Notes: generated by a model from the sequence alone, not told the origin. A DNA stretch of 64,000 nucleotides from Candidatus Gottesmanbacteria bacterium (GCA_963714095.1 OY970230.1:1023907-1087906), one strand, 5' to 3'; shown: positions 1,685-55,778, numbered from the stretch's first letter. Numbers and translations are program-made.

Positions 1685-2267
1685 AGATGTGACTGGTTTC
1701 GATGGTAAATTTCGGCAGATGCGCAGGGTCGCGTGCCATCACGAACAACAATTGCTGCTGCCATTTTCTGACTAGCCGGAAATGCTTTTTCCGTTTACCG
1801 ATGTTTCTTCGTTTTAAATCATAGTCCATCCAGCGGGTGCGGAAATCGGCCCAATCGTACGATTTTTTCTGGGCACTTGCACTGTCTAATATTACAATTC
1901 TGCTTTTACTCGCACTGTAGGAAGATACCGCTGCCCAGTGCCCGGAATCCGCATGCGGACGGTCTTTTTCATCCAAATCATAGAGATATGAAACCAGCAC
2001 CGCCCGCAGCTGATTGGGGTTATATTTCAGCGCACTCTGAAGGTGATGCAGTGTTGCATATTCTACAATAAGAACGGAAAATCCTAGTTTGTTGGCGGCA
2101 CGGATCATATTTTTTGTGCTTGTTCCGTTTCTATTTGTGCCGCAAAGCTCCATGAGTGAGGAGAGCGATTTCCGTTTTCCAAACATCGAGAGCGCGTGTT
2201 TGAGCGCGGTCGGACCGCAGGTGGTATCATCCGGTTGTTGAACTGGTGTTACGTGACTTCTGCCCAT
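1659..2267 (-). CDS. Papain-like cysteine peptidase, C39-like (Peptidase_C39_2 / BtrH-like) family
   Basis: The translation has a TCGPTALKHAL motif (catalytic Cys in a Q/C-G-x-x-AL context) and a downstream DSGHWAAV (His) motif. Its 3' end overlaps the 3' end of the ATP-grasp gene by 26 nt in convergent orientation. Confidence 0.45.
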   Translation of the reverse strand: MGRSHVTPVQQPDDTTCGPTALKHALSMFGKRKSLSSLMELCGTNRNGTSTKNMIRAANKLGFSVLIVEYATLHHLQSALKYNPNQLRAVLVSYLYDLDEKDRPHADSGHWAAVSSYSASKSRIVILDSASAQKKSYDWADFRTRWMDYDLKRRNIGKRKKHFRLVRKWQQQLLFVMARDPAHLPKFTIETSHIFTPEDSIG

Positions 2268-11185: not shown

Positions 11186-11820
11186 ATTTGAAGGATCGCG
11201 TTATCAACGACTAAGCGCTGGTTTACGTTGACCGCGAGTTGGGTTTGGGCGGTGAGAAGATTACGGATAAGATTGGTTAGTTGAGGTGTAGGGTGTTTCA
11301 AAAGTTCTTCCCGCGCCGCACCCAACAGTGATGTAACAAATTTTTTGGCTTCGTCGCGCGTGGCAACAAACGGTTCTAAAGTTGAAAGACGTTTCCCCGG
11401 AGACTCTTCTAATACTTTCAAAAGAATTGATGTGTCGGATTTCTGGGCAGCATCCGTAAGGCGCACGACACTCATGCGGGATAGGATAGTCGGCAGAAGC
11501 GCTTCGGGGACGCTCGTCGTCCCTATAATATATGTATGCGGCGGTGGCTCCTCGAGCGTTTTTAAGAGAGCGTTTTGTGCTTCTGGAGTCAGACGCTCAA
11601 TATCGGTAAGCAAACCAACTTTAGCCGGAGAATTTCTCTGCATAAGAACGAGTTCGCGTTGAAAGTCGCGGATCATTTCGATACCGACAGTTCCTTCTTC
11701 CGGCAGACGAATAGTATCCCACGCAGAAATTTTCCACGAGCTCGTTCGGGATACTAATTCCTTCTGTATAGACTCTTTATTGCCCCCGACAATAAGAAAC
11801 GCATGCATAATCCCTTGCAT
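11182..11820 (-). CDS. holB: DNA polymerase III delta' subunit
   Basis: The translation contains ALLKTLEEPPPHTYIIGTT, the AAA+ delta' signature, and SRM sensor residues (ILSRMSVV). Confidence 0.8.
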   Translation of the reverse strand: MQGIMHAFLIVGGNKESIQKELVSRTSSWKISAWDTIRLPEEGTVGIEMIRDFQRELVLMQRNSPAKVGLLTDIERLTPEAQNALLKTLEEPPPHTYIIGTTSVPEALLPTILSRMSVVRLTDAAQKSDTSILLKVLEESPGKRLSTLEPFVATRDEAKKFVTSLLGAAREELLKHPTPQLTNLIRNLLTAQTQLAVNVNQRLVVDNAILQI

Positions 11821-11850
11821 TATAATACAAAAACATCAATAATAAATTGT

Positions 11851-13572
11851 ATGGCCAGCTCTGCCCAACCAATATTAAATGCACTCGTTGCCGACGGTCG
11901 TCTCTCTCAGACTCAGGCGGATGCGATCCTGACGGAGACGTTGTCTACGGGTGCATCCGTTGAAGATGTTCTTATTAAAAAGCGGTTGGTATCCGATATA
12001 GACCTTGCAAAGGCAAAAGCTAAGTCAATTAATGTTCCGTTTGTTACACTGTCAGGACGCGCTATTACTCCGGCCATTGTCAATTTTATTTCCGAACCCG
12101 TTTCCCGTAAATATACACTCATCCCGTTTGAGTTTAATAGTGTAGCAAACGAACTTTCTGTCGCCATGCTGGACCCTCTGGATTTTCAGGTTTTGGAATT
12201 TATTGAAAAGAAATCCGGGAAACGCGTCCGCCCGTTTATGGCACTCAAAGACGATATTCTTTCTGCTATTGACGAAACGTATTCGCAGAATCTCGGTGAA
12301 GATGTCACGGCGGCCTTGAAGGAAACCGTGGAGCCTGAAATCAAAACATATGAGGCGGGCCGCCTGGGTGAAGTTATCCGTGAAGCGCCTATCGCACAAA
12401 TCGTTTCTGCGACCCTTGAGCAGGCTATACATCTGCGTGCATCCGATGTACATATTGAGCCTCAGTCCGGCGACACACGCGTGAGGTACCGGGTAGACGG
12501 AATTTTGCAGGAGCGGCTGGTTCTTCCCAAACGCCTGCACGATGCCGTCGTGTCCCGTATCAAAATCCTTGCGGATATGAAAATTGATGAGAAGCGTGTT
12601 CCCCAGGACGGTCGCTTTAATTTTAAAATGGGAGAGGAAGAAGTGGACCTTCGTGTATCAACACTCCCGACCGTACACGGAGAGAAAATCGTCATGCGGC
12701 TCCTGAAGAAAACCGGCGGTATTCCGACACTGCCCGAGTTGGGCCTGCGGGGTCTGGCACTCAAAAACCTGGAATCTCAAATAGCCCGTCCGCACGGCAT
12801 TATTCTTGTTACCGGACCTACCGGATCCGGTAAAACGACGACTCTTTACGCAGTACTTTCTAAGCTCAATAACAGCAGGGTAAACATTATGACGCTTGAA
12901 GACCCGGTTGAGTACGAAATTCCCGGCGTGAATCAGGTTCAGATTAATCCGGGGGCAGGCCTCACATTTGCGACAGGTTTGAGATCATTTTTGCGGCAGG
13001 ACCCTAATATCATTCTTGTCGGGGAAATCCGCGACCGTGAAACAACGGATTTGGCTATACAGGCAGCGCTAACCGGACATACCGTATTTTCCACCCTGCA
13101 CACAAATAACGCCTCGGGTGCCATTCCGCGTCTTTTAGATTTAGGGGCAGAACCGTTCCTTATTGTCTCGAGCCTCAATGCTGTCGTGGGCCAGCGCATC
13201 GCACGTAAAATTTGCCCGACGTGTAAAGAAGAATATGATCCTGACGAAGAAGTGAAAAAAGACATCAACAACGTGCTCGGCGCGTTGGTGCCGAAAGACA
13301 GCCCGCTGAAGTTGTATCGGGGAAAAACAACGGTTAACGGGGTTGAATGTGCAGCATGCGGCGGAGCCGGGTATTTAGGCAGGATCGGTATATTTGAAGT
13401 GTTCCCTGTTTCCACAGCCGTTGCCAGATTGATTGCCATACGGGCATCGATGGAAGACATTCAACAGACTGCGGTAAAAGAAGGTATGATTACCATGAAA
13501 CAGGACGGATATATGAAAGCGTTGGAAGGCGTGACGACGATTGAAGAAATCCTTCGTGTCGCGCAGGATTAG
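11851..13572 (+). CDS. pilB: Type IV pilus assembly ATPase PilB (GspE family)
   Basis: The N-terminal GSPII_E_N domain reads LSQTQADAILTE. Walker A is GPTGSGKTTTLYA, and there is a C-terminal tetracysteine motif (CPTCK...CAACGG). The start was chosen at MASSAQP; the longer ORF from 11803 overlaps holB. Confidence 0.9.
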   Translation: MASSAQPILNALVADGRLSQTQADAILTETLSTGASVEDVLIKKRLVSDIDLAKAKAKSINVPFVTLSGRAITPAIVNFISEPVSRKYTLIPFEFNSVANELSVAMLDPLDFQVLEFIEKKSGKRVRPFMALKDDILSAIDETYSQNLGEDVTAALKETVEPEIKTYEAGRLGEVIREAPIAQIVSATLEQAIHLRASDVHIEPQSGDTRVRYRVDGILQERLVLPKRLHDAVVSRIKILADMKIDEKRVPQDGRFNFKMGEEEVDLRVSTLPTVHGEKIVMRLLKKTGGIPTLPELGLRGLALKNLESQIARPHGIILVTGPTGSGKTTTLYAVLSKLNNSRVNIMTLEDPVEYEIPGVNQVQINPGAGLTFATGLRSFLRQDPNIILVGEIRDRETTDLAIQAALTGHTVFSTLHTNNASGAIPRLLDLGAEPFLIVSSLNAVVGQRIARKICPTCKEEYDPDEEVKKDINNVLGALVPKDSPLKLYRGKTTVNGVECAACGGAGYLGRIGIFEVFPVSTAVARLIAIRASMEDIQQTAVKEGMITMKQDGYMKALEGVTTIEEILRVAQD

Positions 13573-13580
13573 CGAAGCGT

Positions 13581-14636
13581 ATGGATATTAAACTATTATT
13601 TTCCGAAGCGTTACGGTTGGGAGCTTCAGACCTGCATATTGTTGTCGGGTATCCGCCGATGCTGCGCGTAGCCGGGAATTTAACGCCGGTTACGGGCAGC
13701 GCGCCGCTCACACCCGCCGATACGGAATCGATCATTTTTCCGACGTTTACGGCGGAAGAAAAAGATATCTTTTTAACCAATAAAGAGATTGATTATTCCG
13801 TGGCCTTCGGGAAGAACCGGTTCCGCGCAAACGTATATTACCAGCAGGAATCCATCGCCGCGGATTTCCGTCTCATTCCGGAGACGATCAAGTCGATTGA
13901 AGCATTGGGATTGCCAGTAATCTGCCACGAATTTGTGAAACTGCGTCAGGGATTTATTTTAGTGACCGGCCCGACCGGTCAGGGCAAATCAACGACGATT
14001 GCATCGATGATTAATACCATAAACCAGACGAGGAGCGTTCACGTCGTGACCATCGAGGACCCTATTGAGTATGTGTATCCGTCGGGTCTTTCCGTTATTT
14101 CGCAGCGTGAGATGCATCAGGATACACTCTCCTGGGGTGTGGCACTCAGAAGTGTTTTGCGCGAAGACCCGGATATTGTTCTCATCGGAGAAATGCGGGA
14201 TCTGGAAACTATTCAGGCAGCCATCACGATAGCGGAAACCGGTCATCTGGTTTTCGCGACACTTCATACCAATTCTGCAGCGCAGACAATCGACCGTATT
14301 GTTGATGTATTTCCTGATAGTCAGCAAGTGCAGATTCGACTTCAACTGTCCGCCGTGATAGAGGGGGTACTATCCGAGCGGCTTATCCCCGCCATTGCTG
14401 GCGGTCGTATTCCGGTGATGGAAATAATGACGGCAACACCTGCGATTAAAACGACTATCCGAGACGGCAAGTCTCATCTTATTGATAACATTATCCAAAC
14501 ATCAGCGGAGCTCGGGATGGTGACACTGGAAGAGGCGCTTGCCCGTGCTATCCGCGAGGGAAAGATACGTGCCGACGTTGCGCAAAGTTATGCCCTGCAT
14601 CCGGAAGAATTAGCCCGTCTTTTAAAACAAGGATAA
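13581..14636 (+). CDS. pilT: Twitching-motility retraction ATPase PilT
   Basis: Walker A is GPTGQGKSTT. Length of 351 aa with no N-terminal extension fits PilT rather than PilB. Confidence 0.9.
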   Translation: MDIKLLFSEALRLGASDLHIVVGYPPMLRVAGNLTPVTGSAPLTPADTESIIFPTFTAEEKDIFLTNKEIDYSVAFGKNRFRANVYYQQESIAADFRLIPETIKSIEALGLPVICHEFVKLRQGFILVTGPTGQGKSTTIASMINTINQTRSVHVVTIEDPIEYVYPSGLSVISQREMHQDTLSWGVALRSVLREDPDIVLIGEMRDLETIQAAITIAETGHLVFATLHTNSAAQTIDRIVDVFPDSQQVQIRLQLSAVIEGVLSERLIPAIAGGRIPVMEIMTATPAIKTTIRDGKSHLIDNIIQTSAELGMVTLEEALARAIREGKIRADVAQSYALHPEELARLLKQG

Positions 14637-14641
14637 TCATC

Positions 14642-15853
14642 ATGGCCTTTTTTCAATACAAAGCACGGGGTACGGACGGAAAAATAGTAACAGGGCTCGC
14701 AGATGCTCCGTCGCAGGATGCAGCCATACGGCTACTTCACGAAAAACAACTGTTTGTTGTCAGCATCAGGGTTTCGCGTGAGAGGCTATCATTCGCCTGG
14801 GTTCAACAATATCTTAAACGGGTAACATTCAGCGACATTGTCAATTTTACGCGGCAGCTTTCAACGATGGTGACGGCAGGACTGTCACTTCCGGAATCCC
14901 TCACGATTCTGCGAACCCAAACAACAAATCCTGCATTTGCCGATATACTTGTTGACATTGAACATCAGATTGTTTCCGGCGGAACACTCGCAAATGCCCT
15001 TGCCAAGTACCCCCGGTATTTCTCGACAACCTATATTGCCCTGGTCCGCGCAGGCGAAGCATCCGGAACACTGGATCGGATTTTGGCGAGACTCTCCGAG
15101 TCTCTTGAAGACCAGCGGGATTTCCGCGGAAAGGTGTCGGGCGCCATGATCTATCCGGTTATCATTCTTATCGGCATGGTGGGTGTCATTATTGTCATGA
15201 TGACGGTCGTCATGCCGAAACTTACCGGGTTATATACCGATATGAATATCCAGCTTCCGTGGAGCACGGTTCTTCTTATCTCCATATCAAATTTTTTTGT
15301 CCGTTTTTGGTGGCTCGTGCTGGTTGGTATAGGTGGCGCGGTATGGTTGTTCCAGTGGTGGCGAACAACCGAGTTCGGAGAACTCTTTATGGATCAGCTG
15401 GTTTTTAAAATACCGCTTTTTGGGGAACTTCAGAAAAAAATAATTCTTGTGGATTTTACCCGGACGCTCGGGATGCTCGTTTCCTCCGGCATCCATATCC
15501 TTGAGGGACTGCAGATTCTCCAGGGGTCTCTGGGGAATGTTCTCTTTCGCAACGCCGTAGGAGAGATTTCCAAAAAAGTCGAGAAAGGATTCCCGTTGGG
15601 AGATTCGTTTGCGCAGTATCCCGTGTTTCCGCCGATTGTCTCGCAGATGATGAAGGTCGGCGAGGAAACAGGGCAACTTGACGAAACGCTGAGTAAACTG
15701 TCGAAGTATTTCCAGACGGAATCAGAAACGCTTGTGAAGGGTCTGACTACGGCGATTGAACCGATTATTATGGTGGTTATGGGGTTGGGTGTGGGGTTTA
15801 TCGTCATTTCCGTCATCACGCCCATCTATAAATTAACCAGTTCGATTCAGTAG
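14642..15853 (+). CDS. pilC: Type IV pilus platform protein PilC (GspF family)
   Basis: Two T2SSF repeats separated by TM segments are present. Length is 403 aa. Confidence 0.85.
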   Translation: MAFFQYKARGTDGKIVTGLADAPSQDAAIRLLHEKQLFVVSIRVSRERLSFAWVQQYLKRVTFSDIVNFTRQLSTMVTAGLSLPESLTILRTQTTNPAFADILVDIEHQIVSGGTLANALAKYPRYFSTTYIALVRAGEASGTLDRILARLSESLEDQRDFRGKVSGAMIYPVIILIGMVGVIIVMMTVVMPKLTGLYTDMNIQLPWSTVLLISISNFFVRFWWLVLVGIGGAVWLFQWWRTTEFGELFMDQLVFKIPLFGELQKKIILVDFTRTLGMLVSSGIHILEGLQILQGSLGNVLFRNAVGEISKKVEKGFPLGDSFAQYPVFPPIVSQMMKVGEETGQLDETLSKLSKYFQTESETLVKGLTTAIEPIIMVVMGLGVGFIVISVITPIYKLTSSIQ

Positions 15854-15916
15854 GAAAACTGATACTTGACAAGGGTCGACGCAGCTGTTACACCTAAATA
15901 AAGGAGATTATTTATT

Positions 15917-16423
15917 ATGAAAACTGCTCGTGGTTTTACACTTATTGAACTGCTTATTGTTATTGCGCTTTTAGGTGCGCTTGCCATAGGACTCTTGGCG
16001 ACAATTGATCCGTTTGAACAGCTCAAAAAAGGCCGTGACACGTCAACCAGAAATACCGTGTCGGAATTTTATAATGCAAATTTGCGGTATTATTCCACCA
16101 AATCAGATTGGCCATGGACGTCTCTGGGTAGCGCGACACCTTTAGCCGATCCTATCATGTCTGATGCGGCGACGGGCGCGATTACGAAACTTATTAATGC
16201 CGGTGAATTAAAGGCAGGTTTTACCGGATATGTGGGAGCCGGAACGCTGTCGACCATCTATGTTTCATCGACAGGGCTGGGAGATCTGCATGTCTGTTAT
16301 ATGCCGGAATCCAAAGGGTTCCAGATCGACGCAAATACGATCTATGATCCAAGCGGCGGGACGAGTATAACCACCTGCAAAGCGACCGGTGGGACAGACC
16401 CCTGCTACTACTGCATTCAGTAA
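15917..16423 (+). CDS. Type IV major pilin (PilA-like)
   Basis: The N-terminus has the prepilin motif KTARGFTLIELLIVIALLG (G|FTLIE cleavage/methylation site). Four cysteines near the C-terminus could form the D-region disulfides. A strong SD (AAGGAG) lies 10 nt upstream of the start. Confidence 0.85.
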   Translation: MKTARGFTLIELLIVIALLGALAIGLLATIDPFEQLKKGRDTSTRNTVSEFYNANLRYYSTKSDWPWTSLGSATPLADPIMSDAATGAITKLINAGELKAGFTGYVGAGTLSTIYVSSTGLGDLHVCYMPESKGFQIDANTIYDPSGGTSITTCKATGGTDPCYYCIQ

Positions 16424-18439
16424 ATGGATAATCAAGCAAGAAATCGCAAAAACAGCAGTGTTTTTGCGATTCTTGTTGGTTGTATAGCATTTGTTTCTTT
16501 CCTCCTATTTCAGGCACAGGGCATTGTGGGCGGAGACTCAGGAGATGTGGTGACGGCCGCAGTCACCTTTGGTGTGGCGCACCCCCCTGGGTATCCCCTC
16601 TATACATTTCTTGGCTGGATTGTTTCCAGATTACCAATATTTACTGCTTCATGGCGGGTGGGACTCCTCTCTTCTGTGCCGCATGCAATTGTTATCGCAC
16701 TGGTCTACTGGCTTGTTTCTTCGCTCACGAAGCGCAGAGCCGTCGGATTATTCAGCGCATTGCTACTCCTTTCCAATTACCTGTTTTTTCTCTACAGCGT
16801 GACGCCGGAAGTATTCGCGCTGTTGGACTTGTTTGTTATTCTCCTTATCTGTCTTCTTATCCGCTGGCGACAGACTAAAAAAAATCGGTTTCTTGTTATC
16901 GCATCGTTTGTGTTTGGATTATCACTTGCCAATCAGCAGACTATATTGTTTTTGGTGCCGGCTTTGTTTTACTGGATTTGGCGGCAACGATTCCTTCTGC
17001 CAAAACAATCACAACGATTCCGTTTTTCTGTTGCGTTTTGGTTTTTGGTCGGGTTAGTTCCGTATGCGTACGTATTCATCGCGGCCCGCGGGCACTCAAT
17101 CATCAATTGGGACAGGCCCGTGGATCTCGCCGGTTTTATCCGTCTGATGACGCGGGCGGATTACGGCACGTTTGTGTCCGGCGGGTTATTTGGTGACCTG
17201 GTGATTCAGCGCTTTTTGCAGATTCAGGCCTACGCGCAGTTTATTCTTATGGATTTTACCTGGATTGGAGTTGTCCTTATCCTGACGGGGTTTTTCTCCC
17301 TGTGGAAGCGGGATCGGCCTCTTTGTCTATTCTTTTTGGTTGCACTGCTCTTTTTGGGCCCATTCTTTTTCTTTTATGCAAGTTTTCCTTTGCTTAACCG
17401 GTTTATGCTCGGCACGTATGAGCGGTTTTTATTGCCGTCGTATGTAGTGTTTGCCATTCTTTCCGGTATCGGGCTTGCAGAGCTGGTAGAACGCCTCAGG
17501 TCAGTCTTGAGCCGGCGCATGGCCCGTCTTGTTTTTGGGATCGGGTGTATTGTCATCCTCCTGTATCCGCTCAGCCAGTTGGGGGTCACTCTGTGGCGGT
17601 TTTACGGATTACCCGCAGACAGAACTGCAGATAATCTGGGTATGGATGTGCTTTCGCCGCTGCCTTCCGGCAGCATTCTGTTATTAGGCCGCGATATGAC
17701 GCTCTTTAGTACGCAATATATGCGCTATGCGCTCAATTTCCGGCCGGATGTCATTGCCATACACCAGAGCCGGTTGGCCTCCCCTGATTATCAGGTGACC
17801 CTCCACGCGATATTCCCCGATATCACATTTGCGGCAACCGGCGATGCAACGGTCAATCTCGTGACATCCCAGTACCCGAAGCGGCCGATATTTTCATATG
17901 CACCGCTCCCTGTCGGAGCAGGATGGAGCTGGGTGCCGTATGGGTTAACCTATAAATTAGTTGACCAAAAGACGGCGCCGAACGCAGGCACGATGTATAA
18001 AGAAAATCTTGCCATCTGGAAAACATTGCACGATCCTGCTACAGGAATTCTTTCACGGTACAATCACCTGATGCTTTCCGATGCCCGCGACGTATATGCG
18101 GGTGCGCATATTGCGCTTGGGAGGACGCTAGCGCTTGCCGGCATGCTGGACGAGGCATATGGCCAGTTTAGTGCGGCTGCCAAAATTGCGGGGGACGCAG
18201 AACTTGCAAATGCATATAAGGATGAGGGGGCGGTGTTGCTGCTTCAAAAAAAATGTACGGCTGCGCTCACCGCGTTTACTGCGGCACAAAACGCAAGTAT
18301 CGTACCGGATAGCATCATTACGTATTATGAGGCGAGTACGTACCGCGATTGCCTCGGCGATGCAGCACACGCGAAGAAGCTTTTTGACGAATATGACGCC
18401 GAGAATAAACAAACCCAAACACCATTAGGACAATTGTGA
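16424..18439 (+). CDS. DUF2723/TMEM260-like (PMT-like GT-C) membrane glycosyltransferase with C-terminal TPR repeats
   Basis: The protein has 11 or more TM helices. The first extracytoplasmic loop carries an acidic GDSGDVV motif and AHPPGYPLYTF. The C-terminal 150 aa are TPR-like. The family assignment was made from memory and is inference. Confidence 0.5.
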   Translation: MDNQARNRKNSSVFAILVGCIAFVSFLLFQAQGIVGGDSGDVVTAAVTFGVAHPPGYPLYTFLGWIVSRLPIFTASWRVGLLSSVPHAIVIALVYWLVSSLTKRRAVGLFSALLLLSNYLFFLYSVTPEVFALLDLFVILLICLLIRWRQTKKNRFLVIASFVFGLSLANQQTILFLVPALFYWIWRQRFLLPKQSQRFRFSVAFWFLVGLVPYAYVFIAARGHSIINWDRPVDLAGFIRLMTRADYGTFVSGGLFGDLVIQRFLQIQAYAQFILMDFTWIGVVLILTGFFSLWKRDRPLCLFFLVALLFLGPFFFFYASFPLLNRFMLGTYERFLLPSYVVFAILSGIGLAELVERLRSVLSRRMARLVFGIGCIVILLYPLSQLGVTLWRFYGLPADRTADNLGMDVLSPLPSGSILLLGRDMTLFSTQYMRYALNFRPDVIAIHQSRLASPDYQVTLHAIFPDITFAATGDATVNLVTSQYPKRPIFSYAPLPVGAGWSWVPYGLTYKLVDQKTAPNAGTMYKENLAIWKTLHDPATGILSRYNHLMLSDARDVYAGAHIALGRTLALAGMLDEAYGQFSAAAKIAGDAELANAYKDEGAVLLLQKKCTAALTAFTAAQNASIVPDSIITYYEASTYRDCLGDAAHAKKLFDEYDAENKQTQTPLGQL

Positions 18440-20564
18440 CGCCCAGGCAGATACCGCTTATCCATGCTCCATAAACAAAACTATCCGGCCAATACGTAAA
18501 TTCGATTGTATGAGGCCCCCTGGGCACGAGAATGCCGATGTTTTTGATATTTACCGGAAATATCGGCACAGCTTTCGTATCGATAGTTGCGTGCCAGCCG
18601 GGATAATATGTCTGGGTCAGGACCAGAATCGCGCGCGCGTTCGGGTTTGTGACGGAAATGACATATTGCCCTTCGTCTGACGATTTCACTGCTATCGTTC
18701 CACGGGTTAAGCTCGCTGCCGGTGTTGCGTCAAATTCAACAAGGATGGTATCACCGGGTACGAACGTGTCCGAGGTAAACGCCGCGACGGCATCCTCGAC
18801 GGTATGCACCGGAATCGCCCGTTTTGCAAAATAGACTGGCGGCAGCGGATCGGGATTTTCGAAGAGGCTGGTGGTATGTCCGGCAAACGATATGTGAGCC
18901 TTGAGAGACAATCCTTGCTGGGTCAGCGGCAGCGTGCTGATAACGGTTTTAACAGATAAAAGTGAAAGAAGTTTAATGCCCGTCGCGCTTATGGTGGCGT
19001 TGCTGCTGTCGAAGGTAATAGACTGGTTTAATAAATCCGTAAGCACTCCGGATCTGCGGATTGTTCGGGCTGCATCTTCCTCGATTTGAGGAACGCCCCA
19101 TACCATATTCTGATCAGGCGTCAGCGAATTTCGCAGAAATAGAGCAGGATCGTTTATCCCCCGAAGATTCAACCACCCATGAGGAGCATAGAATTCATTA
19201 TATGTTATTGGTGATCCGATGGTTATTGTATAGTGTGTGAGGTCGATAGAGTGGATGAGCGGCGGATTTTGTACCCATTCTGACGCAGGAACAAGTTTAT
19301 GGTACGGCGACCAGATGATAAACAGCGAGACCGTATGGATGCAAATAATGATGAGTGCAGCAGCAAAAATAATCCCGGATTTTTTCCCGTATCCCATCAG
19401 CCGGTCGAATGCGTGAACGGACAGAACTATAAGTGCGATTACAAAAAGCCAGATGAAGCGGGACGGCACGCGGAACAGGTTGAAGGGCCAAAATGAATAG
19501 ATAAGATAGAGCGGTGAATTGCTTCCGGTCATAAGAAGAAAGGATGCGCCCAAGACAAGGAGAAAAAAAAGTGTGGATTTGATCCGGAATTTTTTCCATA
19601 CCGCAATACTGGCATACACAGCAAGGAAAATCAGAGGAAGAATGCCGATATATGCGGTATTTTCCCAAAAAATGCTTCCGGAGAACACTGAAAAATTTGG
19701 GTAGGTGCCGGTTGCGGGATTGCCAAGGGCAAACGGGTTGATAAGCGTGAGAAGATGTTTGAACGGGTATGAATAATATGCGGCCTGATCGGGAGAAAAA
19801 CCCGTAGCAGTCACGAGCGTTTTTAAGTATTCCACCGACGGAAGTATTTGAGCGGCGGCGGCGGCACACCCGACCGTAATGGCAATAACGAACATGATTG
19901 TTTTTTGTTTCCAATCAACACCGGTACGCATAAGCCATATCCAGTACGCGCCGAGGAATAAGAGGGTAATAAATACGCACTGCGGGAATCCGACGAAAAT
20001 GAGTTGTGAAAGAAAGAGAATAAACCATCCGACGGCACACCACGATTTTTTATTCGCCAATATCAGCGTGAGGGCGGCAAGCCAGGGAAAAAGACAATAA
20101 CTCTGAACGATCGTTATGTGGGTAAGCTGGGCAATAATATAACCGGAAAGGACAGTTGTTATTGATCCGAAAACACAGGCAATGCGGCTGTAGTTCATGA
20201 GTCGCAGCCAGACATACATTCCCCACCCCATGATACAGAGAGTAAGGACCAGCGCTATATTGTATGCTGCAACCGGGTTAAGGATGCTAAATAAAATAAA
20301 ATTCGGTAAGAAAAAAGTTGACATTGAGCCGAACGCATATATCGGATATCCCCCGCCGATAAGTGACGTCCACAGTGGTATGCGGTGCTCGGAAAGTTGT
20401 GTGCTATAAAAGAATTTCGTTGAAATCGCAAGGACGGCGTCACTTTGTCCGAAGTCGGGTGTCACAATAAGCTGCGGCGTAGGCCAGAATAACCGGAAGA
20501 AAAAGGCGGTTACGACGATGGTGATAAGACCGACCGCACACATATCTTTCCATGTCCATTTCAT
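18318..20564 (-). CDS. YfhO-like polytopic membrane protein (GT-C-type glycosyltransferase family)
   Basis: The N-terminal half is multi-TM, followed by a large extracytoplasmic domain and a final TM. Architecture and size (748 aa) fit the YfhO family. Its 3' end overlaps the previous gene's 3' end by 122 nt in convergent orientation. Confidence 0.45.
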   Translation of the reverse strand: MKWTWKDMCAVGLITIVVTAFFFRLFWPTPQLIVTPDFGQSDAVLAISTKFFYSTQLSEHRIPLWTSLIGGGYPIYAFGSMSTFFLPNFILFSILNPVAAYNIALVLTLCIMGWGMYVWLRLMNYSRIACVFGSITTVLSGYIIAQLTHITIVQSYCLFPWLAALTLILANKKSWCAVGWFILFLSQLIFVGFPQCVFITLLFLGAYWIWLMRTGVDWKQKTIMFVIAITVGCAAAAAQILPSVEYLKTLVTATGFSPDQAAYYSYPFKHLLTLINPFALGNPATGTYPNFSVFSGSIFWENTAYIGILPLIFLAVYASIAVWKKFRIKSTLFFLLVLGASFLLMTGSNSPLYLIYSFWPFNLFRVPSRFIWLFVIALIVLSVHAFDRLMGYGKKSGIIFAAALIIICIHTVSLFIIWSPYHKLVPASEWVQNPPLIHSIDLTHYTITIGSPITYNEFYAPHGWLNLRGINDPALFLRNSLTPDQNMVWGVPQIEEDAARTIRRSGVLTDLLNQSITFDSSNATISATGIKLLSLLSVKTVISTLPLTQQGLSLKAHISFAGHTTSLFENPDPLPPVYFAKRAIPVHTVEDAVAAFTSDTFVPGDTILVEFDATPAASLTRGTIAVKSSDEGQYVISVTNPNARAILVLTQTYYPGWHATIDTKAVPIFPVNIKNIGILVPRGPHTIEFTYWPDSFVYGAWISGICLGVTIVLMVFGFVYSRRHIRQKASSRVLHRRGNRGTYSPHNT

Positions 20565-20619
20565 GAAGGCAAGTGTACCATACTTGACATAGTCTGGTTA
20601 AGATCCGACACTGGATAGT

Positions 20620-21354
20620 ATGATGATTGTTTTTCTTTTTATTCTCGGACTGGCGGTCGGATCGTTTGCCAACGTATTAATTGATCGGTTACCCAAAGGA
20701 GAGAGTATTGTGTGGGGACGTTCTCATTGTGATTACTGCAAAAAACCCCTTCGGTGGTATGAACTGTTTCCCGTCGTTTCTTATGTGATACAGGCAGGCC
20801 GTTGCCGGCGGTGCAGGAAAAAGCTTTCGGTACAATATCCGATTATTGAATTTGTTACAGGGATCGGATTTGCCCTGTTGTATCCCGGGTACATAGCGTA
20901 TTATGCACTGTTTATTTCTTTGCTTGTTATTTTTATCGCTGATCTCAAATATCAGATTATTCCCGACAGTATGATTGTTCTCGGATTTGCAGCGGCCATA
21001 CTGTATTGGTATGAAAAAAGATTGTCCTTTGCCGGCATTTCGGAGTCTTTAGTAACAGGGTTTATTTCTTTCGCAGCTTTTTATGCACTTTGGGCACTCA
21101 CACGGGGGAAAGGACTGGGGTTCGGCGACGTAAAATTTGCGCCTCTCATGGGCGTCCTGTTGGGATTTCCCGGCGTTGTTTTTGCCTTCTACGTCGCTTT
21201 CTTGACGGGCGCTTTGGCGGCTGTCATACTGATGATAGGAAGGAAAAAGACCTGGAAAAGCAAAATTGCATTCGGGCCGTTTCTGGTAGCAGGAACGGTG
21301 GCTGCACTTATATGGCAACCACAACTCATATCATTATGGAGGATGTATATATGA
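20620..21354 (+). CDS. pilD: Prepilin peptidase PilD (A24 family)
   Basis: The N-terminal Zn-binding tetracysteine motif (CDYC...CRRC), 8 TM helices and the catalytic GFGDVK motif are present. Confidence 0.9.
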   Translation: MMIVFLFILGLAVGSFANVLIDRLPKGESIVWGRSHCDYCKKPLRWYELFPVVSYVIQAGRCRRCRKKLSVQYPIIEFVTGIGFALLYPGYIAYYALFISLLVIFIADLKYQIIPDSMIVLGFAAAILYWYEKRLSFAGISESLVTGFISFAAFYALWALTRGKGLGFGDVKFAPLMGVLLGFPGVVFAFYVAFLTGALAAVILMIGRKKTWKSKIAFGPFLVAGTVAALIWQPQLISLWRMYI

Positions 21355-21803
21355 AAAAACGAGGGTTTACGTTGATGGAACTTCTTATCGTTATTGCCAT
21401 TATGGGTATTCTTGTATCAATAGGTGTCGCCTCCTATGCCACGGCCCAAAAAAAGGGCCGGGATGCACGAAGAATTTCGGATATGAAAGCTGTGCAAAAT
21501 GCTTTTGAACAATATGATGCTGTTAATAGCGGCTCATATCCGGCTACGTGTGGCGCAATAACAGCAGACCCGACATACTTGCCCGGCGGGTTTCCGACGG
21601 ACCCAAAAAACTTCACGGGCTCCGATGCATCGACGACCTTTGTCTATGATTTTAGTGACCCACATTGCTCGGCTTCATCCTACTGTTTTTGCGCGCACCT
21701 TGAGTCCGGAACGGGAAATGAGAGCGCAGATCCGGGTTCTCCTGCCTGCACGTTTACATCATTAGGAACAGAACAATACTATTGTGTCGGAAATTTACAA
21801 TAA
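21351..21803 (+). CDS. Type IV pilin-like protein
   Basis: The N-terminus is MKKRGFTLMELLIVIAIMGIL with a Cys-rich C-terminus. The start lies inside a longer out-of-frame ORF (21090) and overlaps the pilD stop (ATGA). Confidence 0.8.
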   Translation: MKKRGFTLMELLIVIAIMGILVSIGVASYATAQKKGRDARRISDMKAVQNAFEQYDAVNSGSYPATCGAITADPTYLPGGFPTDPKNFTGSDASTTFVYDFSDPHCSASSYCFCAHLESGTGNESADPGSPACTFTSLGTEQYYCVGNLQ

Positions 21804-21810
21804 TCCAGCC

Positions 21811-22275
21811 ATGAAACATGCGGTACATCCGGGGAATGGATTTACTTTAATAGAAATCTTGGTGGTAGCAACCATCATTGCCGTATTGACCGCGATCGGC
21901 GTGGTATCGTACGGGTCCATTAACTTGCGGACGCGGAATGCCAAGCGGAAAAGTGATCTGGAGCAGGTGCGAAGCGCGCTTGAGATGTATAGGATTGATA
22001 ATGGGTCATATCCGGGAACGAGCACGAACTTTATCACATTATCAAGCCTTGATCCTGGTGACGGCACTGGTCCGTTGGTTACAACCTATCTGCCTTCAAT
22101 TCCCAGGGATCCGGAAAGCACGGTGGCAACACCGATAGAATATTATTACCGCGTCATTGGATCCGGTCCCCCATATTATAGTTATTGTCTCTGCGGGCAG
22201 CTGGAAAGTAGTTCCGGTGACTACTGCGGTGTAGCGCATATAGCTAATTGTAATTATTATCTGAAAAATCCTTAA
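21811..22275 (+). CDS. Type IV pilin-like protein
   Basis: The N-terminus reads MKHAVHPGNGFTLIEILVVATIIAVL, a prepilin motif. Confidence 0.8.
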   Translation: MKHAVHPGNGFTLIEILVVATIIAVLTAIGVVSYGSINLRTRNAKRKSDLEQVRSALEMYRIDNGSYPGTSTNFITLSSLDPGDGTGPLVTTYLPSIPRDPESTVATPIEYYYRVIGSGPPYYSYCLCGQLESSSGDYCGVAHIANCNYYLKNP

Positions 22276-22277
22276 CT

Positions 22278-22766
22278 ATGGAGTCTTCTTCACAATCTCA
22301 CGGGTTTACCTTAATTGAGATTGTTGTGAGCGTCGCAATTCTAGCGCTCCTCAGCGGTCTTTTTATTGCCAATTATAACGGGTTCAGTAATTCTCAGACT
22401 GTCCAGCAGACTGCGTCGGACGTGATTGCAAACTTGCAGTCAGCCAGGACAATGGCATCCTCCGGTTTGAAACCAGCGGGGTGCAACACGCTCGTCGGTT
22501 ATATTGTAAATTTCTCTAATTCCTCCTATACAGTACAGGCGAGTTGCCAGTCAGGACTGGTCGGCGGGATAAATACGTATACGCTCCCGATGGGGGTAAC
22601 GTTTGCTTCCCCCACTCCCAACCCTATTACATTCTATGCTCTTGATGGCGGAGCATCGGCAAACCAGACAATATCTCTCGTCGGGAACGGAGTTACTGCA
22701 AAAGTATCGGTATCTTCTTCGGGGGTGGTATCGGATTTTATTCCGACGCCGACTCCGACGCCGTAA
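22278..22766 (+). CDS. Type IV minor pilin-like protein with C-terminal Pro-Thr repeat
   Basis: The N-terminus has SHGFTLIEIVVSVAILALL. The protein ends in FIPTPTPTP. Confidence 0.75.
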   Translation: MESSSQSHGFTLIEIVVSVAILALLSGLFIANYNGFSNSQTVQQTASDVIANLQSARTMASSGLKPAGCNTLVGYIVNFSNSSYTVQASCQSGLVGGINTYTLPMGVTFASPTPNPITFYALDGGASANQTISLVGNGVTAKVSVSSSGVVSDFIPTPTPTP

Positions 22767-22781
22767 TAGACGGAAAAACGT

Positions 22782-23240
22782 ATGAAAATATATGAAGTAG
22801 GTAAACGGGGGCAGACATTGGTAGAAATGATAGTCATTGTCGGTATGGTGGTACTCTTGGCTACCGGTGTAGTTGTCGGAACAACGGTTTCGCTCAGCCG
22901 TTCGGAAACGTCAAAGGTGCGCAGCAACGCTGCTGCCTATGCCCAGTCCGGGATTGAACTGGCGCGCGCCCTTCGTGATACCAGCTGGGACGCTTTTGCA
23001 GCGTTAGGGACTCCTACCGCGAATACCTATTGTGTGGGATCCGACGGATCGTTTGGTCAGGCACAAATTTCGTGTACGGCATTTAATATTGATAATACAT
23101 ATGTTCGATCCCTTACACTTGAATTAACCATAGTTTCCGGCGTCCCTACGGTGAAAGTCACATCAAAGGTTTCATGGGGAGACGTAAGTAATCCGGCGAA
23201 TGCAATTCAGTTGATGACATATCTGACACAGTGGAAATAA
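22782..23240 (+). CDS. Type IV minor pilin-like protein
   Basis: The N-terminus has KRGQTLVEMIVIVGMVVL, a prepilin-like motif with Q at +1. Confidence 0.65.
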   Translation: MKIYEVGKRGQTLVEMIVIVGMVVLLATGVVVGTTVSLSRSETSKVRSNAAAYAQSGIELARALRDTSWDAFAALGTPTANTYCVGSDGSFGQAQISCTAFNIDNTYVRSLTLELTIVSGVPTVKVTSKVSWGDVSNPANAIQLMTYLTQWK

Positions 23241-23245
23241 TCTTT

Positions 23246-23794
23246 ATGGCGACACATTCACAAAAGGGATTTACATTGCTGGAGATGTTAGTTTCCGTCA
23301 TTATTCTGGCGGTTGTCGCAATCCTTATCGTGCAGGTATTGTTTACGACGACACATGTCAATCAAAAAACCAAGGTCCTGAGTGATATAAAACAAAACGG
23401 AAATTTCACTCAGGATATTATCGGTAGAATGGTGCGTTCAGCCCAAACAATTGAAACATCCTGTGTAAACGGCGCAACGTCAGCGTCCGTAGCCCAAATT
23501 ACAAATCCCGACGATAATGTGACCACTTTTACCTGTCTTACGGACGGGAACGTTGCACGTATCGCATCGGTAAGCGCTGGAGTCGTTGTTTATTTAACTG
23601 CCGGGAACGTGACGGTAAGTAGTTCGGGTGGTGCGACCTGTGACGACAGTTCGCTTACGTTTTCTTGTCCGCCGTCAAGCGGAATTCAGGATACACTCAC
23701 CGTTTCATTTACGCTTGTTCCAAAGGGAGTTTCCGGCAGTGAGTATGATATGGGGAGCACAACGTTTCAAAGCACTGTAGGCTTGCGAAATTAA
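23246..23794 (+). CDS. Type IV minor pilin-like protein
   Basis: The N-terminus reads MATHSQKGFTLLEMLVSVIILAV. The start was trimmed from a GTG at 23231. Confidence 0.75.
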   Translation: MATHSQKGFTLLEMLVSVIILAVVAILIVQVLFTTTHVNQKTKVLSDIKQNGNFTQDIIGRMVRSAQTIETSCVNGATSASVAQITNPDDNVTTFTCLTDGNVARIASVSAGVVVYLTAGNVTVSSSGGATCDDSSLTFSCPPSSGIQDTLTVSFTLVPKGVSGSEYDMGSTTFQSTVGLRN

Positions 23795-23824
23795 TGTGCG
23801 GTTACTACAATATAAAGGGAGGAT

Positions 23825-24688
23825 ATGGTGTATAAAAAAGAGACACAATCAGGTCAGGTTGCATTGATGGCGCTTCTTGTGATGACGATTGCCGCGACGG
23901 TCGGGCTGTCTCTTATTGCGCGCACCACAACCGATATTTCCGTGACAAGAAACACCGAGGAATCAACACGGGCGTTTTCTGCAGCAGAAGCGGGTGTTGA
24001 AGAAACGTTAAGATCAGGTGTAGCCTCGTCCGGTACAATAGATCCGACTTATGGAGTGAGTTATACGGCCTCAATTACTCCCGTGAGCGGTACCGCGACA
24101 AGTCCATACGTATTTCCTCAAAAAACCTTGAACGAGGATACCGAAACCGTGTGGCTGGTTAGTCATTCCGCCGACGGTACGATTATAGAATCACCGACGT
24201 ATACTGCAAATACTATTAATGTATGCTGGAGCAGTGAGTCAACTACACCAGCCATCGTTGTCTCTATCCTCTACAAAAAGGCAAGTGACGGATCGTACAG
24301 GGTTGCGAGAAATGCGTATGATTCGAATCGTTCCCGTGCCACAGATTTAGTCACGGGAAATAACTTTTCCGCTCCGGTAGCTGCAACCGGCTGTCCAAGT
24401 ACAACCGCACTTGGTACGAAAATTACATTTTCTGATTATGGAATTGTTCCGGCCAATGACACTCTGATAGCCCTTCGAATTCGTCCGGTGTATGCCGGAG
24501 CACTTCTTGCGGTAGCGCCGGCCGCGGCAGTGCCTGCGCAGAATCTTCCTGTTCAGGGTAACAGCATTCAGTCCGTGGGTGTAACAACAAGCGGCGTGAA
24601 CAGAAAAATCACCGTGTATCAGCAATACAGGGCGCCGGAATCAATTTTTGATTACGCGCTGTATAGTGAAGGGTCACTTTCACAATAA
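23825..24688 (+). CDS. PilX-like large minor pilin
   Basis: The N-terminus has SGQVALMALLVMTIAATVGL, a prepilin-like motif. The protein is 287 aa with a Thr/Ser-rich body. Confidence 0.6.
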   Translation: MVYKKETQSGQVALMALLVMTIAATVGLSLIARTTTDISVTRNTEESTRAFSAAEAGVEETLRSGVASSGTIDPTYGVSYTASITPVSGTATSPYVFPQKTLNEDTETVWLVSHSADGTIIESPTYTANTINVCWSSESTTPAIVVSILYKKASDGSYRVARNAYDSNRSRATDLVTGNNFSAPVAATGCPSTTALGTKITFSDYGIVPANDTLIALRIRPVYAGALLAVAPAAAVPAQNLPVQGNSIQSVGVTTSGVNRKITVYQQYRAPESIFDYALYSEGSLSQ

Positions 24689-24703
24689 TAAGATTCTGCC
24701 CAT

Positions 24704-25726
24704 ATGAATTTATCGCTCGGACTTGATATCGGATCGCACACGATTAAGCTTATTGAACTTGGGTTTGAGGGAGATTCCGTGGTACTTTCAGCGGCCGGCA
24801 TCATGCCGACCCCGGAAAAAACATCCGGATCAGCGCAGTCAGCAGACGCAGAGAATATGGCTCAGGCCATTAAGATCCTTGTAAAAGATACGGGGGTCAA
24901 ATCAAAGGAAGTACACATTGCGCTTCCCGAATCTAAAGTTTTTACCAGGGTGATTGAAGTACCCACGCTCTCGCAACGGGAGCTTGCGTCCGCCATTCGT
25001 TGGGAAGCAGAACAATATATTCCATTGCCTTTGGATCAGGTGAATTTAGATTTCACAATACTGCGCGACTCCAAAGCGACTGGAACCAATAAGATGGAAG
25101 TACTTTTGGTGGCGGCGCCAAAAACGCTGGTTGACAACTATCTGAGCATTCTGGAAATTGCGGAGCTGTCTCCCATAGCTGCCGAAACGGAGATTATAGC
25201 AACCTCACGGGCGCTTACGAGGTCAGTATCCAATGTTCACAGTGTCATGATCGTATCACTCGGCGCATTGACTACCGATATAGCTATAGAAAGAAATGAA
25301 GTATTGACATTTACCCGCTCATTGTCTGCAGGCGGCGATGCATTTACCCGTGCGCTTGCGCAGAGCCTTGATTTCAACTTGACGCAGGCAGAAGAATATA
25401 AACGCGCGTACGGGATACAGCAGGACAAACTTGAAGGAAAAATTGCCGCTGCCGCAAAACCCATCACCGATACAATTGTCGGCGAACTGAAACGCGCGCT
25501 TATCTTTTATCAGGAGAAATATAAAGATGAACATGTACAGCTCGTTTTACTTTCTGGGGGTACGGCGCGGTTACCCGGCCTTGTGGAGTATTTGGCGCAG
25601 GCGCTAGGCGTCGAAGTACAACTTGCAAATCCGTGGGTCGGAATTGCCCGTGCGCCCCGGTTTAACGTTCTTACGACGGAAGGGCCGAATTTTTGTGTGG
25701 CGGTAGGATTGGCCCTCCGTAGGTAA
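24704..25726 (+). CDS. pilM: Type IV pilus assembly protein PilM (actin-like ATPase)
   Basis: The N-terminus LGLDIGSHTIKLIEL and the paired actin-fold motifs are present. Length is 340 aa. Confidence 0.85.
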   Translation: MNLSLGLDIGSHTIKLIELGFEGDSVVLSAAGIMPTPEKTSGSAQSADAENMAQAIKILVKDTGVKSKEVHIALPESKVFTRVIEVPTLSQRELASAIRWEAEQYIPLPLDQVNLDFTILRDSKATGTNKMEVLLVAAPKTLVDNYLSILEIAELSPIAAETEIIATSRALTRSVSNVHSVMIVSLGALTTDIAIERNEVLTFTRSLSAGGDAFTRALAQSLDFNLTQAEEYKRAYGIQQDKLEGKIAAAAKPITDTIVGELKRALIFYQEKYKDEHVQLVLLSGGTARLPGLVEYLAQALGVEVQLANPWVGIARAPRFNVLTTEGPNFCVAVGLALRR

Positions 25727-25733
25727 ACATAGT

Positions 25734-26279
25734 ATGGATCCCGCGAATAAAATAAATCTTATTCAAAACAGGACTGAGGTATCGCCGCAACTCGTGATGG
25801 TGATAGCACTCCTTCGCAGATTGAGTCTTTGGGTTCTGGTTATTTTTATCGTAAGCGGTATCCTCGTCGGAGGGATGTATTATTATTTCAGCATTCGCAA
25901 TGAGGAGTTAGCCGCAAAACAACAGCAACTGTCTCAGGTTATCGCACAAAGTACGAGGACAGAAGGATTATTAGTTTCGGTTACCCAGCGTGCTGCGTTG
26001 ACGAAAAAAATTTTAGATATCCAAAAACCTGTCGGAATGGTGTTTGATACGGTCGTCCAGTTTGTTTCTCCGGGGAAGATATCCAACATTTCGTTTGATG
26101 ACACTGACACCGTTTCTCTCATGGTTCATGTGAATTCAATTCCGGAGGGTATTTTCATGACTGACGATCTTGTGAACCTGGCTGCTATGAATCTTGTACG
26201 GAAGCCACAGCTCGTTTCTTTTTCGATAGGGCCGGATGGGAGTATTGATATGGGATTGTCGTTTGTTGCAGTATTCTAA
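25734..26279 (+). CDS. pilN: PilN-like bitopic membrane protein
   Basis: The protein has a single N-terminal TM, then a coiled-coil, then a periplasmic domain. Its position after pilM supports the call. Confidence 0.6.
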   Translation: MDPANKINLIQNRTEVSPQLVMVIALLRRLSLWVLVIFIVSGILVGGMYYYFSIRNEELAAKQQQLSQVIAQSTRTEGLLVSVTQRAALTKKILDIQKPVGMVFDTVVQFVSPGKISNISFDDTDTVSLMVHVNSIPEGIFMTDDLVNLAAMNLVRKPQLVSFSIGPDGSIDMGLSFVAVF

Positions 26280-26284
26280 TTCTT

Positions 26285-27016
26285 ATGCAGTTAAAAAGGT
26301 TTTTTCGCCGGTATCAAGCGCTGATTATTTCAATTGTAATCCTCTTGGTGTGCGGGTTTGGTTTTGCGATGGGAATAGTTCCGCTTGCGCAAAAAATTGT
26401 AGATTTGAATAATGAATTTATCACCTCTTCTCAAGAGGTAAACGGTTTGAACAGTAAAACAGCGCTCTTGCAGGCTGTGAATGAATATACGATGAGAAGC
26501 GATTTACTAACTCTGTTATCCGCTGTTCCTTCCGATAAGTCACTCCCGACAGTATTAAGCACGCTTGACGGGTTGGCCGCCCAGACAGGTGTTTCCTTGG
26601 ATACAGTATCATTGGCGAAGGGAGGCTTTCTCTCCACCGCGTCGGCAGAGCCATTAACTGCTGATGAACAGGCTATTGGAACGAACATTATACCGTTTAC
26701 GGTAGGTTTTACAGGGACATTCGATCAGGTTCATGCATTTTTGACGGCAAGCACATCAGTTCGCCGGTTGTTCCGTGTTCAGACATTTGATGTTTCATTT
26801 GGTCAGGACAATACGGTAGCAGCTAACGTTTCGATGGAAGCCTTTTACTCCCCTCTTCCCACAGCAATCGGCGCTGTTGGTCAGCCGATTACCAGTTTAT
26901 CGGGTACGGACGCACGCGTCATTGCATCGGTGTCTGCGATGCAACTATTGGTGCAGCCATCCTCATTGCCTCCGCCATCAGGAGGGGCCGGCAAATCCGA
27001 CCCGTTCAGCTTATAG
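26285..27016 (+). CDS. pilO: PilO-like bitopic membrane protein
   Basis: The protein has a single TM followed by a coiled-coil. Its position after pilN supports the call. Confidence 0.55.
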   Translation: MQLKRFFRRYQALIISIVILLVCGFGFAMGIVPLAQKIVDLNNEFITSSQEVNGLNSKTALLQAVNEYTMRSDLLTLLSAVPSDKSLPTVLSTLDGLAAQTGVSLDTVSLAKGGFLSTASAEPLTADEQAIGTNIIPFTVGFTGTFDQVHAFLTASTSVRRLFRVQTFDVSFGQDNTVAANVSMEAFYSPLPTAIGAVGQPITSLSGTDARVIASVSAMQLLVQPSSLPPPSGGAGKSDPFSL

Positions 27017-55776: not shown

Positions 55777-55778
55777 GG

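Follow-up and report, generated by a model that had tools for sequence, protein, structure and literature searches.

Organization of the locus

The 64,000-nucleotide stretch of DNA analyzed here (the window) comes from a Candidatus Gottesmanbacteria bacterium (GCA_963714095.1 OY970230.1:1023907-1087906) and contains a complete type IV pilus cluster at positions 11803-27016, as seen from open reading frame (ORF) calls and Pfam. Two genes for polytopic proteins of the GT-C glycosyltransferase type are found between the major pilin and the prepilin peptidase genes, an arrangement that points to O-glycosylation of the pilin. One of them, ORF 16424-18439(+), is named GT1 below and is distinct from GT2, which is a family of GT-A enzymes. 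The other encodes a YfhO-family protein. The host lineage is Gottesmanbacteria-like and belongs to the Microgenomatia of the Candidate Phyla Radiation (CPR, or Patescibacteria), and the closest named relatives of both proteins are from Candidatus Gottesmanbacteria. The features of the locus are as follows.

11803-13572, plus strand: pilB (ORF; T2SSE/MshEN called in identical contigs)
13581-14636, plus strand: pilT (ORF; T2SSE called in identical contigs)
14642-15853, plus strand: pilC (ORF; T2SSF called in identical contigs)
15917-16423, plus strand: major pilin, 168 amino acids (aa), the proposed acceptor (N_methyl in Pfam and NCBIfam)
16424-18439, plus strand: GT1, TMEM260-like (DUF2723) GT-C protein, 671 aa (Pfam, PDB match, AlphaFold2 (AF2) model, Foldseek)
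16434-16477, plus strand: RNA hairpin within codons 4-18 of GT1 (terminator scan, folding)
18318-18439, both strands: convergent coding overlap of 122 nt (ORF calls, conservation, AF2 model)
18318-20564, minus strand: YfhO-family GT-C protein, 748 aa (Pfam PF09586)
20620-21354, plus strand: pilD, prepilin peptidase (Pfam A24_N_bact, 1.6e-32, and Peptidase_A24)
21336-24688, plus strand: minor pilins (ORF calls, Pfam); the member at 22278-22766 ends in IPTPTPTP
24704-27016, plus strand: pilM/N/O (ORF calls, Pfam)
59245-60039, plus strand: GT2 protein (GT-A) of the polyprenyl/dolichyl-phosphate sugar synthase type, 264 aa (Pfam Glycos_transf_2)

This layout agrees with a first-pass annotation of the same DNA, which had placed a 671-aa ORF against the pilin stop codon, a 748-aa YfhO-like protein on the opposite strand with a 122-nt overlap, and both genes ahead of pilD. 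The TAA stop of the pilin is followed directly by the ATG of GT1 with zero spacing, and the overlap is exactly 122 nt. The pilD and yfhO genes are divergent with a 55-bp spacer between them.

GT1 and the TMEM260 family

GT1 resembles human TMEM260 in sequence, fold, and catalytic residues. It matches the TMEM260-like family PF11028 with 87.9 bits (cut-off 24.2) over residues 38-188, and a secondary PMT_2 match of 34.5 bits lies under this one, so the DUF2723/TMEM260/PMT-like class first given to the protein stands. Homology to the cryo-electron microscopy structure of TMEM260 (9rql_A; the TMEM260 structures are PDB 9RQL/9RQM/9RQN) extends over residues 21-469, with an E-value of 9.1e-46 for the single sequence and 1.8e-64 for a GT1 family profile of 53 members. 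The loop GGDSG[DE]xxTAAxxxGVAHPPGYPL is near-identical in the two proteins. The GDSGD motif pointed out in the first-pass annotation is G37-D41, in the first extracytoplasmic loop, and corresponds to GDSGE in TMEM260.

The residues that are essential in TMEM260 are all present in GT1. In the human enzyme D52 and H67 form a sugar-recognition motif, R264 and Y267 belong to a donor-loading loop, R355 lies in transmembrane (TM) helix 10, and D441 in the Rossmann-like domain is the catalytic base; mutating any of the six abolishes or strongly lowers activity (bioRxiv 10.64898/2026.03.17.711096). The HMMER alignment pairs these residues, in the same order, with D38, H53, R244, Y247, R334, and D424 of GT1, and none of the six varies in the family alignments or among the pilin-linked homologues examined. 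From its family, fold, and conserved residues together, GT1 is predicted with high confidence to be an active TMEM260-family protein O-glycosyltransferase that depends on a polyprenyl-phosphate-sugar donor.

The AF2 model of GT1 (predicted local distance difference test score (pLDDT) 89.7, predicted template modeling score 0.88) has 11 TM helices at residues 2-392, a Rossmann-like alpha/beta domain at about 418-532, and six paired helices of the tetratricopeptide repeat (TPR) type at 552-664. This is the domain order of TMEM260 and its "wrist, palm, fingers" layout. The C-terminal TPR described in the first-pass annotation is borne out by these six helices and by profile positions 554-626, which match consensus TPR proteins with an E-value of 1e-12; in the profile search PilF is a weak match to the same part. 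The top ranks of a Foldseek search against the PDB hold GT-C proteins only (PglB, STT3, DPY19, AftA, ALG9, and Pmt4). Homology and the basic N-terminus suggest that the TPR and Rossmann-like domains face outward.

There are also differences from the human enzyme. The TPR half cannot be aligned in sequence with that of TMEM260, and the acceptor is presumed to be a type IV pilin instead of the IPT domains of plexin, MET, and RON. GT1 is bacterial, and its sugar carrier would therefore be a bacterial polyprenyl phosphate and not dolichol. Two other assignments were rejected. GT1 is not a GT39 PMT, as it has no MIR domain, PMT_2 is only a secondary match, and its best solved relative is TMEM260 and not Pmt1/2/4. 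Neither membrane protein is of the PglL/TfpO type, as Wzy_C gave no Pfam match at E <= 0.01.

Linkage of the pilin and GT1

The major pilin and GT1 genes are adjacent in about 60 species-level loci spread over the class Microgenomatia. The GT1 survey took one genome per species and combined tblastn with a scan for ORFs with the pilin motif, and the pilin survey scanned metagenomes with a pilin alignment. Three orthologues with 67, 51, and 47% identity have the same gene order as the window. In at least 30 Microgenomatia loci, in which GT1 identity is 26-54%, an ORF for a 170-190-aa pilin ends between -54 and +90 bp from the GT1 start; the record titles of these loci include Gottesman-, Woese-, Levyi-, and Curtissbacteria. 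Loci L032 and L041 are seeming exceptions, and the start codons there are TTG/GTG. Many metagenome-assembled genome records whose operon is clearly of the Microgenomatia type are titled "uncultured Gammaproteobacteria bacterium" (L009, L014-L016, L018, L021, L024, L028, L031, and others), and these titles look like taxonomic mislabels in third-party annotation assemblies. The pilin beside GT1 in L032 (9330-9935(+)) has GFTLIQ in place of the usual GFTLIE, so that the otherwise invariant Glu5 is a Gln.

The adjacency seen in the first-pass annotation therefore holds in relatives, and it outlasts rearrangement of the operon. The pair is intact where pilBTC is inverted (L031, L032, L039, and L040) and in L023, which has its minor pilins and pilM upstream. 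About 40 homologues from outside the CPR (Verrucomicrobiota, Acidobacteriota, Bdellovibrionota, Planctomycetota, and others) have no pilus gene within 10 kb. These homologues resemble GT1 up to about residue 470 and not in the acceptor-binding half that follows, and tblastn matches extend to GT1 residues ~660-670 in CPR loci only.

The pilin search found GT1 directly downstream of the pilin in 27 loci and pilD directly downstream in 26. As about half of the related loci run from pilin to pilD with nothing between them, it is concluded that the module has been inserted, always at the same point, beside roughly half of the members of this pilin family.

This distribution bears on the idea that the gene order is simply inherited and has no functional coupling, or that the proteins are non-catalytic pilus assembly factors acting through the TPR. 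Within Gottesmanbacteria the flanks with gyrB, holB, trmD, and rpsP keep their synteny as well. These small genomes generally have a conservative gene order, so part of the linkage signal comes from inheritance, an objection that is softened by the rearranged Levy- and Woese-type loci. TPR proteins such as PilF, the weak match noted above, act in pilus biogenesis. Against both forms of the idea stand the six invariant catalytic and donor-binding residues, the presence of the module in roughly half of the pilin loci and its absence from the other half at a single insertion point, and the further glycosylation genes that gather at this point (described below). Inherited order or an assembly role is therefore highly improbable as the explanation.

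The major pilin as proposed acceptor

The major pilin starts with a class III signal peptide, MKTARG|FTLIELL. Near its C-terminus is a conserved loop that is bounded by Cys and rich in Ser, Thr, and Gly, C154...TGGTDPC163YYC166. The pilins form one family, and in the family alignment the typical loop is C-K-S-Q-T-S-G-T-A-G-T-D-C-Y-Y-C. Pilins beside GT1 (n=58) are richer in Ser and Thr than pilins beside pilD (n=26). In the globular part the two amino acids make up 22.5% in the former and 17.9% in the latter (p 3e-6), and for the last 40 residues the shares are 24.6% and 16.1% (p 1e-7). No significant difference is seen in the N-terminal helix (p 0.08). The enrichment is supportive but not decisive, since it is confounded by phylogeny, the two groups being different.

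The first-pass annotation had proposed both the major pilin and the PT-tailed minor pilin as O-glycosylated. The proposal is supported as a prediction for the major pilin. Comparison lends it no support for the minor pilin at 22278-22766, whose PT tail was rejected as a conserved target and as a correlate of YfhO; with both a strict and a loosened filter, the tail occurs in this genome only among 28 loci.

The YfhO-type protein and the convergent overlap

The second membrane protein matches PF09586 (YfhO) with 58.3 bits (cut-off 28.5) in two stretches, the best being residues 623-703. It has about 13 TM helices, with an extracytoplasmic beta-rich domain at ~516-691 and the last TM helix at 694-729. 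D37 and D42 in the first outer loop are near-invariant, and the fold search recovers a GT-C fold. Both proteins of the module accordingly fall within GT-C families by Pfam and fold search, as had been proposed. A sequence search of the YfhO-type protein against solved structures gave no match, and the protein reaches no NCBIfam equivalog (PgfM2 gives 16.5 bits vs a cut-off of 1500). Known YfhO systems share the GT-C fold, the acidic first outer loop, and the beta-rich domain before the last TM helix; the protein in the window differs from them in that its alignment to the Pfam model is limited to the two ends and in that it sits inside a pilus operon.

The convergent overlap is a real, tolerated feature. 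The overlap covers the last 40 codons of each gene, which encode the conserved TPR end of GT1 and, in YfhO, the end of the final TM helix and an unconserved tail. Tail residues 730-748 have pLDDT < 50 in the AF2 model and are partly disordered. An assembly artefact, which the first-pass annotation had named as a danger to its reading, was rejected: of 25 independent loci, taken from different assemblies, 24 keep a tail-to-tail overlap of GT1 and YfhO of 4-122 nt, and in the exception, L020, there is a 5-nt gap.

YfhO homologues with 36-40% identity are all within a type IV pilus operon. The tie of YfhO to the pilin is nevertheless weaker than that of the TMEM260-like enzyme, because YfhO is absent or swapped for another GT-C protein in Levyibacteriota-type loci. 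It may not be specific for pilin, since it is missing from many GT1 loci and P/T-rich tails are found elsewhere in the window, and it may instead, or also, act on the P/T-rich tails of other envelope proteins. Its specificity for pilin is accordingly less probable than the role of the pilin as substrate of GT1.

Two envelope proteins in the window have such regions. A class A penicillin-binding protein (PBP) at 36186-38777(+), with Transgly, Transpeptidase, and Big_7 domains, has a P/T-rich C-terminus near 38730-38777, ...DYSAPTPTATPTPTSP, and is a candidate non-pilin substrate of YfhO; the PBP1a of the window ends SAPTPTATPTPTSP. A 183-aa protein at 62803-63354(-) starts with a TM helix, continues with a long P/T/A-rich linker TPTRTPMPSPSATPTAEATATPTPTIYPTATATPTPSP, and ends in an SLT/transglycosylase-like domain; it is another possible target of O-glycosylation.

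General O-glycosylation of Ser/Thr/Pro-rich envelope proteins outside the cytoplasm, with pilins as one client or a mere neighbor, is the main alternative, and it applies above all to YfhO. It is suggested by analogy with the streptococcal YfhO-family proteins PgtC2, PgfM1, and PgfM2, which add sugars to disordered, Ser- and Thr-rich tails on PBP1a, PrsA, and further proteins (PMC12041528). The PBP1a tail, the PT-rich linker of the SLT protein, and the PTPTPTP end of the minor pilin would all suit such a system, many GT1 loci do without YfhO, and TMEM260 homologues outside the CPR work without a pilus context. For GT1, however, the position at the pilin stop codon through rearrangements in about 60 loci, and an acceptor-binding half that aligns only within the pilin-linked clade, are not accounted for. 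The PT tail of the minor pilin is not conserved, and the nearer YfhO homologues are confined to pilus operons. On balance a general system is unlikely.

A second alternative is that the enzymes glycosylate a non-protein polymer (teichoic-acid-like, peptidoglycan, or lipid), and that their place in the operon is meaningless. Characterized YfhO proteins transfer a sugar from undecaprenyl phosphate (C55-P-sugar), supplied by a GT2 partner, to teichoic acids (PMC8035078) or to Ser/Thr-rich stretches of proteins (PMC12041528), and modify lipoteichoic and wall teichoic acids (PMC8035078, PMC5836110); the YfhO systems of B. subtilis, S. aureus, and Listeria are concerned with N-acetylglucosamine on teichoic acid. 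ArnT-type GT-C enzymes likewise act on non-protein envelope components, and the GT-C fold alone does not specify an acceptor. The nearest characterized relative of GT1, on the other hand, is a protein-specific O-mannosyltransferase, and GT1 keeps the D424 base and the peptide-binding TPR. With pilin linkage that survives rearrangement, and with no teichoic acid synthesis genes seen in the window, a polymer acceptor is quite improbable.

The variable second slot

GT1 is the constant core of the module, and the other genes vary around it in the manner of a glycosylation island. The second slot may hold YfhO, a PMT_2-like GT-C protein, or a larger island with GT2 and methyltransferase genes, or it may be empty. 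YfhO is not found in Levyibacteriota-type loci: in six of them a co-directional gene between GT1 and pilD encodes a PMT_2-like polytopic protein of 391 aa, and in three the slot is empty. In Gottesmanbacteria GW2011_GWC1_43_10 an expanded island lies downstream of the pilin and GT1 (L020:12013-21952), with the order YfhO, a 649-aa protein of unknown type, methyltransferase, PMT/PMT_2 GT-C, GT2, a second YfhO, and methyltransferase; no pilD is present within this locus. In two Curtissbacteria loci extra genes part the pilin from GT1. The insert is a PMT_2 GT-C gene in L026, and in L029 it consists of a methyltransferase gene and two ORFs for polytopic proteins that have no Pfam match. An additional 795-aa ORF between YfhO and pilD, L003:14220-16607(+), is seen in a single Gottesmanbacteria lineage only (L003/L004) and has no Pfam match.

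The interchangeable second slot suggests that the glycan has diversified among lineages, plausibly under phage or host-recognition pressure.

Donor supply

The only GT2 found in the window, at 59245-60039, is a candidate for making the lipid-linked donor, and a link between it and the module is a conjecture. Its best NCBIfam matches are AglJ, PpgS, and dolichyl-phosphate hexose transferase, all below the cut-offs, and it matches the dolichol-P-mannose synthase 5mlz with an E-value of 4.5e-7. By its sequence, this gene indicates that the genome should be able to make donors of the polyprenyl-phosphate-sugar type. A CsbB/GtrB-type GT2 gene adjoining yfhO, which is typical of the YfhO family, is found in the L020 island and not in the window; the possibility that the GT2 of the window is an orthologue of the one in L020 was rejected, as they have 25% identity. 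The ORF finder gave a 383-aa version of the protein, starting at 58888, that overlaps an opposite-strand ORF (57481-59094); the GT2 domain starts at M120 of this version. Directly after the GT2 gene comes one for a 544-aa DUF2079 polytopic protein, and the two (59245-61699(+)) look like a separate pair of GT-A and membrane glycosyltransferases.

Expression signals

The pilin gene is preceded by a strong ribosome-binding site (RBS), AAAGGAG, and GT1 has none. The hairpin in the early codons of GT1 starts 11 nt past the pilin stop and has a 13-bp stem at 16442-16471 in the terminator scan, with a folding free energy of -22.7 kcal/mol and a z-score of -5.9 vs shuffles. Canonical terminator-like hairpins occur at the same position in L014, L021, L023, and L036, and there are none in most loci. 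The hairpin is a possible attenuator that would hold expression of the enzyme below that of the pilin. The arrangement resembles the attenuated read-through that has been described, in Pseudomonas among other bacteria, for genes accessory to the pilin (PMC11841053). A sigma-70 promoter scan found no enrichment (15 vs 15.2 in shuffles).

Comparison with known pilin glycosylation systems

PglL/TfpO proteins of Neisseria and P. aeruginosa group I are Wzy_C O-oligosaccharyltransferases that use an undecaprenyl-diphosphate oligosaccharide donor. They resemble the module in the window in that they O-glycosylate pilin and that tfpO directly follows pilA, but they belong to a different protein family from GT1 and use a different donor. 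The cyanobacterial pilin-modifying "Ogt" was rejected as a relative, as it is a cytoplasmic GT41 enzyme.

A closer parallel is TfpW of P. aeruginosa group IV, to which the first-pass annotation had compared the locus. TfpW is a 646-aa GT-C protein with 11 TM helices and a C-terminal periplasmic TPR, and it uses a polyprenyl-phosphate-linked monosaccharide donor for D-arabinofuranosylation of pilin (bioRxiv 10.1101/2020.04.19.049825). The parallel is sound in gene position, directly after the major pilin, and in the shared design of GT-C core, 11 TM helices, and TPR. It is read here as analogy and not as homology: the TfpW motifs DDX (loop 1) and YX6PFX7P (loop 4) are absent from both GT1 and YfhO in regular expression searches. 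Unlike TfpW, GT1 has a second GT-C protein attached to it and its host is from a monoderm-like CPR lineage. No genes for D-arabinofuranose biosynthesis were seen in the window. Because GT1 lacks both motifs and is in the TMEM260 family, it is treated as an analogue of TfpW, possibly a convergent one, on a comparison of published motifs and family.

A probable pilin O-glycosylation module and its proposed mechanism

Taken together, the evidence makes it likely that the genes between the pilA-type gene and pilD are a pilin O-glycosylation module, similar to TfpW in role and drawn from different GT-C families. The major pilin is probably a substrate of GT1.

Several observations weigh against this reading. 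Some have been given above: the syntenic housekeeping flanks, with the partial inheritance of gene order that they imply, the many GT1-containing loci that have no YfhO, the P/T-rich tails on PBP1a and the SLT-domain protein, and the phylogenetic confounding of the Ser/Thr enrichment. In addition, loops similar to that of the major pilin are found in some pilins without a glycosyltransferase, and the acceptor sequon of TMEM260 is not evident in the pilin. The operon has no GT2, donor synthase, or flippase gene; the nearest GT2 is 39 kb off, and it is paired with the DUF2079 membrane protein. Finally, that the pilin carries a sugar, which sugar this would be, and where it would be attached are inferred, while the fold of GT1, its homology, and the conservation of the six residues are shown.

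The following mechanism is proposed. A cytoplasmic GT2 enzyme would load a monosaccharide onto polyprenyl phosphate, and the lipid-linked sugar would be flipped outward. The prepilin would be anchored in the membrane, its C-terminal domain exposed on the outer side. The TM core of GT1 would hold the polyprenyl-phosphate-hexose by means of D38, H53, R244, Y247, and R334, the hexose being probably mannose by analogy with TMEM260. The outward-facing TPR and Rossmann-like domains may then grip an extended stretch of the pilin, and D424 would act as general base in an inverting transfer to Ser or Thr, likely in the C-terminal disulfide loop. The YfhO-type GT-C protein may add a further sugar, either extending the first or modifying other Ser/Thr sites or P/T-rich envelope tails. 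Zero spacing, the lack of an RBS of its own, and the early-codon hairpin would keep the output of the enzyme far below that of the pilin.

Other features of the window

A recombinase of the phage integrase family is located at the edge of the window (9-671(+)), and a stand-alone Peptidase_C39-like protein is encoded not far from it (1659-2267(-)). The genes for tRNA-Lys(CTT) and tRNA-Arg(TCG) at 55703-55850(-) abut with zero spacer. An Rfam scan of the window found tRNAs and nothing else.

Implications for CPR pili and the TMEM260 family

No surface machine of the CPR/Patescibacteria is more conserved than the type IV pilus, which serves in host attachment in cultivated members. A full-text literature search, whose coverage was incomplete, found no prior account of a pilin-linked GT-C protein in the CPR or of the function of a bacterial DUF2723 protein. 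The sole discussion of pilin glycosylation in the CPR that it found is a prediction of sites in Saccharibacteria, in which no enzyme is named (PMC11623550).

A wider proposal can be put forward tentatively, as one with a reasonable though less than even prospect of being right. The TMEM260 homologues of Microgenomatia may be dedicated type IV pilin O-mannosyltransferases that anchor, between pilA and pilD, a hypervariable island for glycosylation of the pilin; its second-step GT-C enzymes, GT2 donor synthases, and methyltransferases would be exchanged from lineage to lineage. The findings in the window themselves name a specific enzyme, an acceptor, and catalytic residues (D38 and D424) that are testable without culturing the organism. 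TMEM260 is a human disease gene, and its bacterial relatives gain from them a candidate substrate and so a tractable model for the enzyme family. The swappable second GT-C slot is a natural experiment on glycan diversification. If the wider proposal is true, it would provide the first native substrate for any bacterial DUF2723 protein, and each episymbiotic CPR lineage would then have a distinct sugar coat on its pilus, the structure that serves as both host finder and phage receptor.

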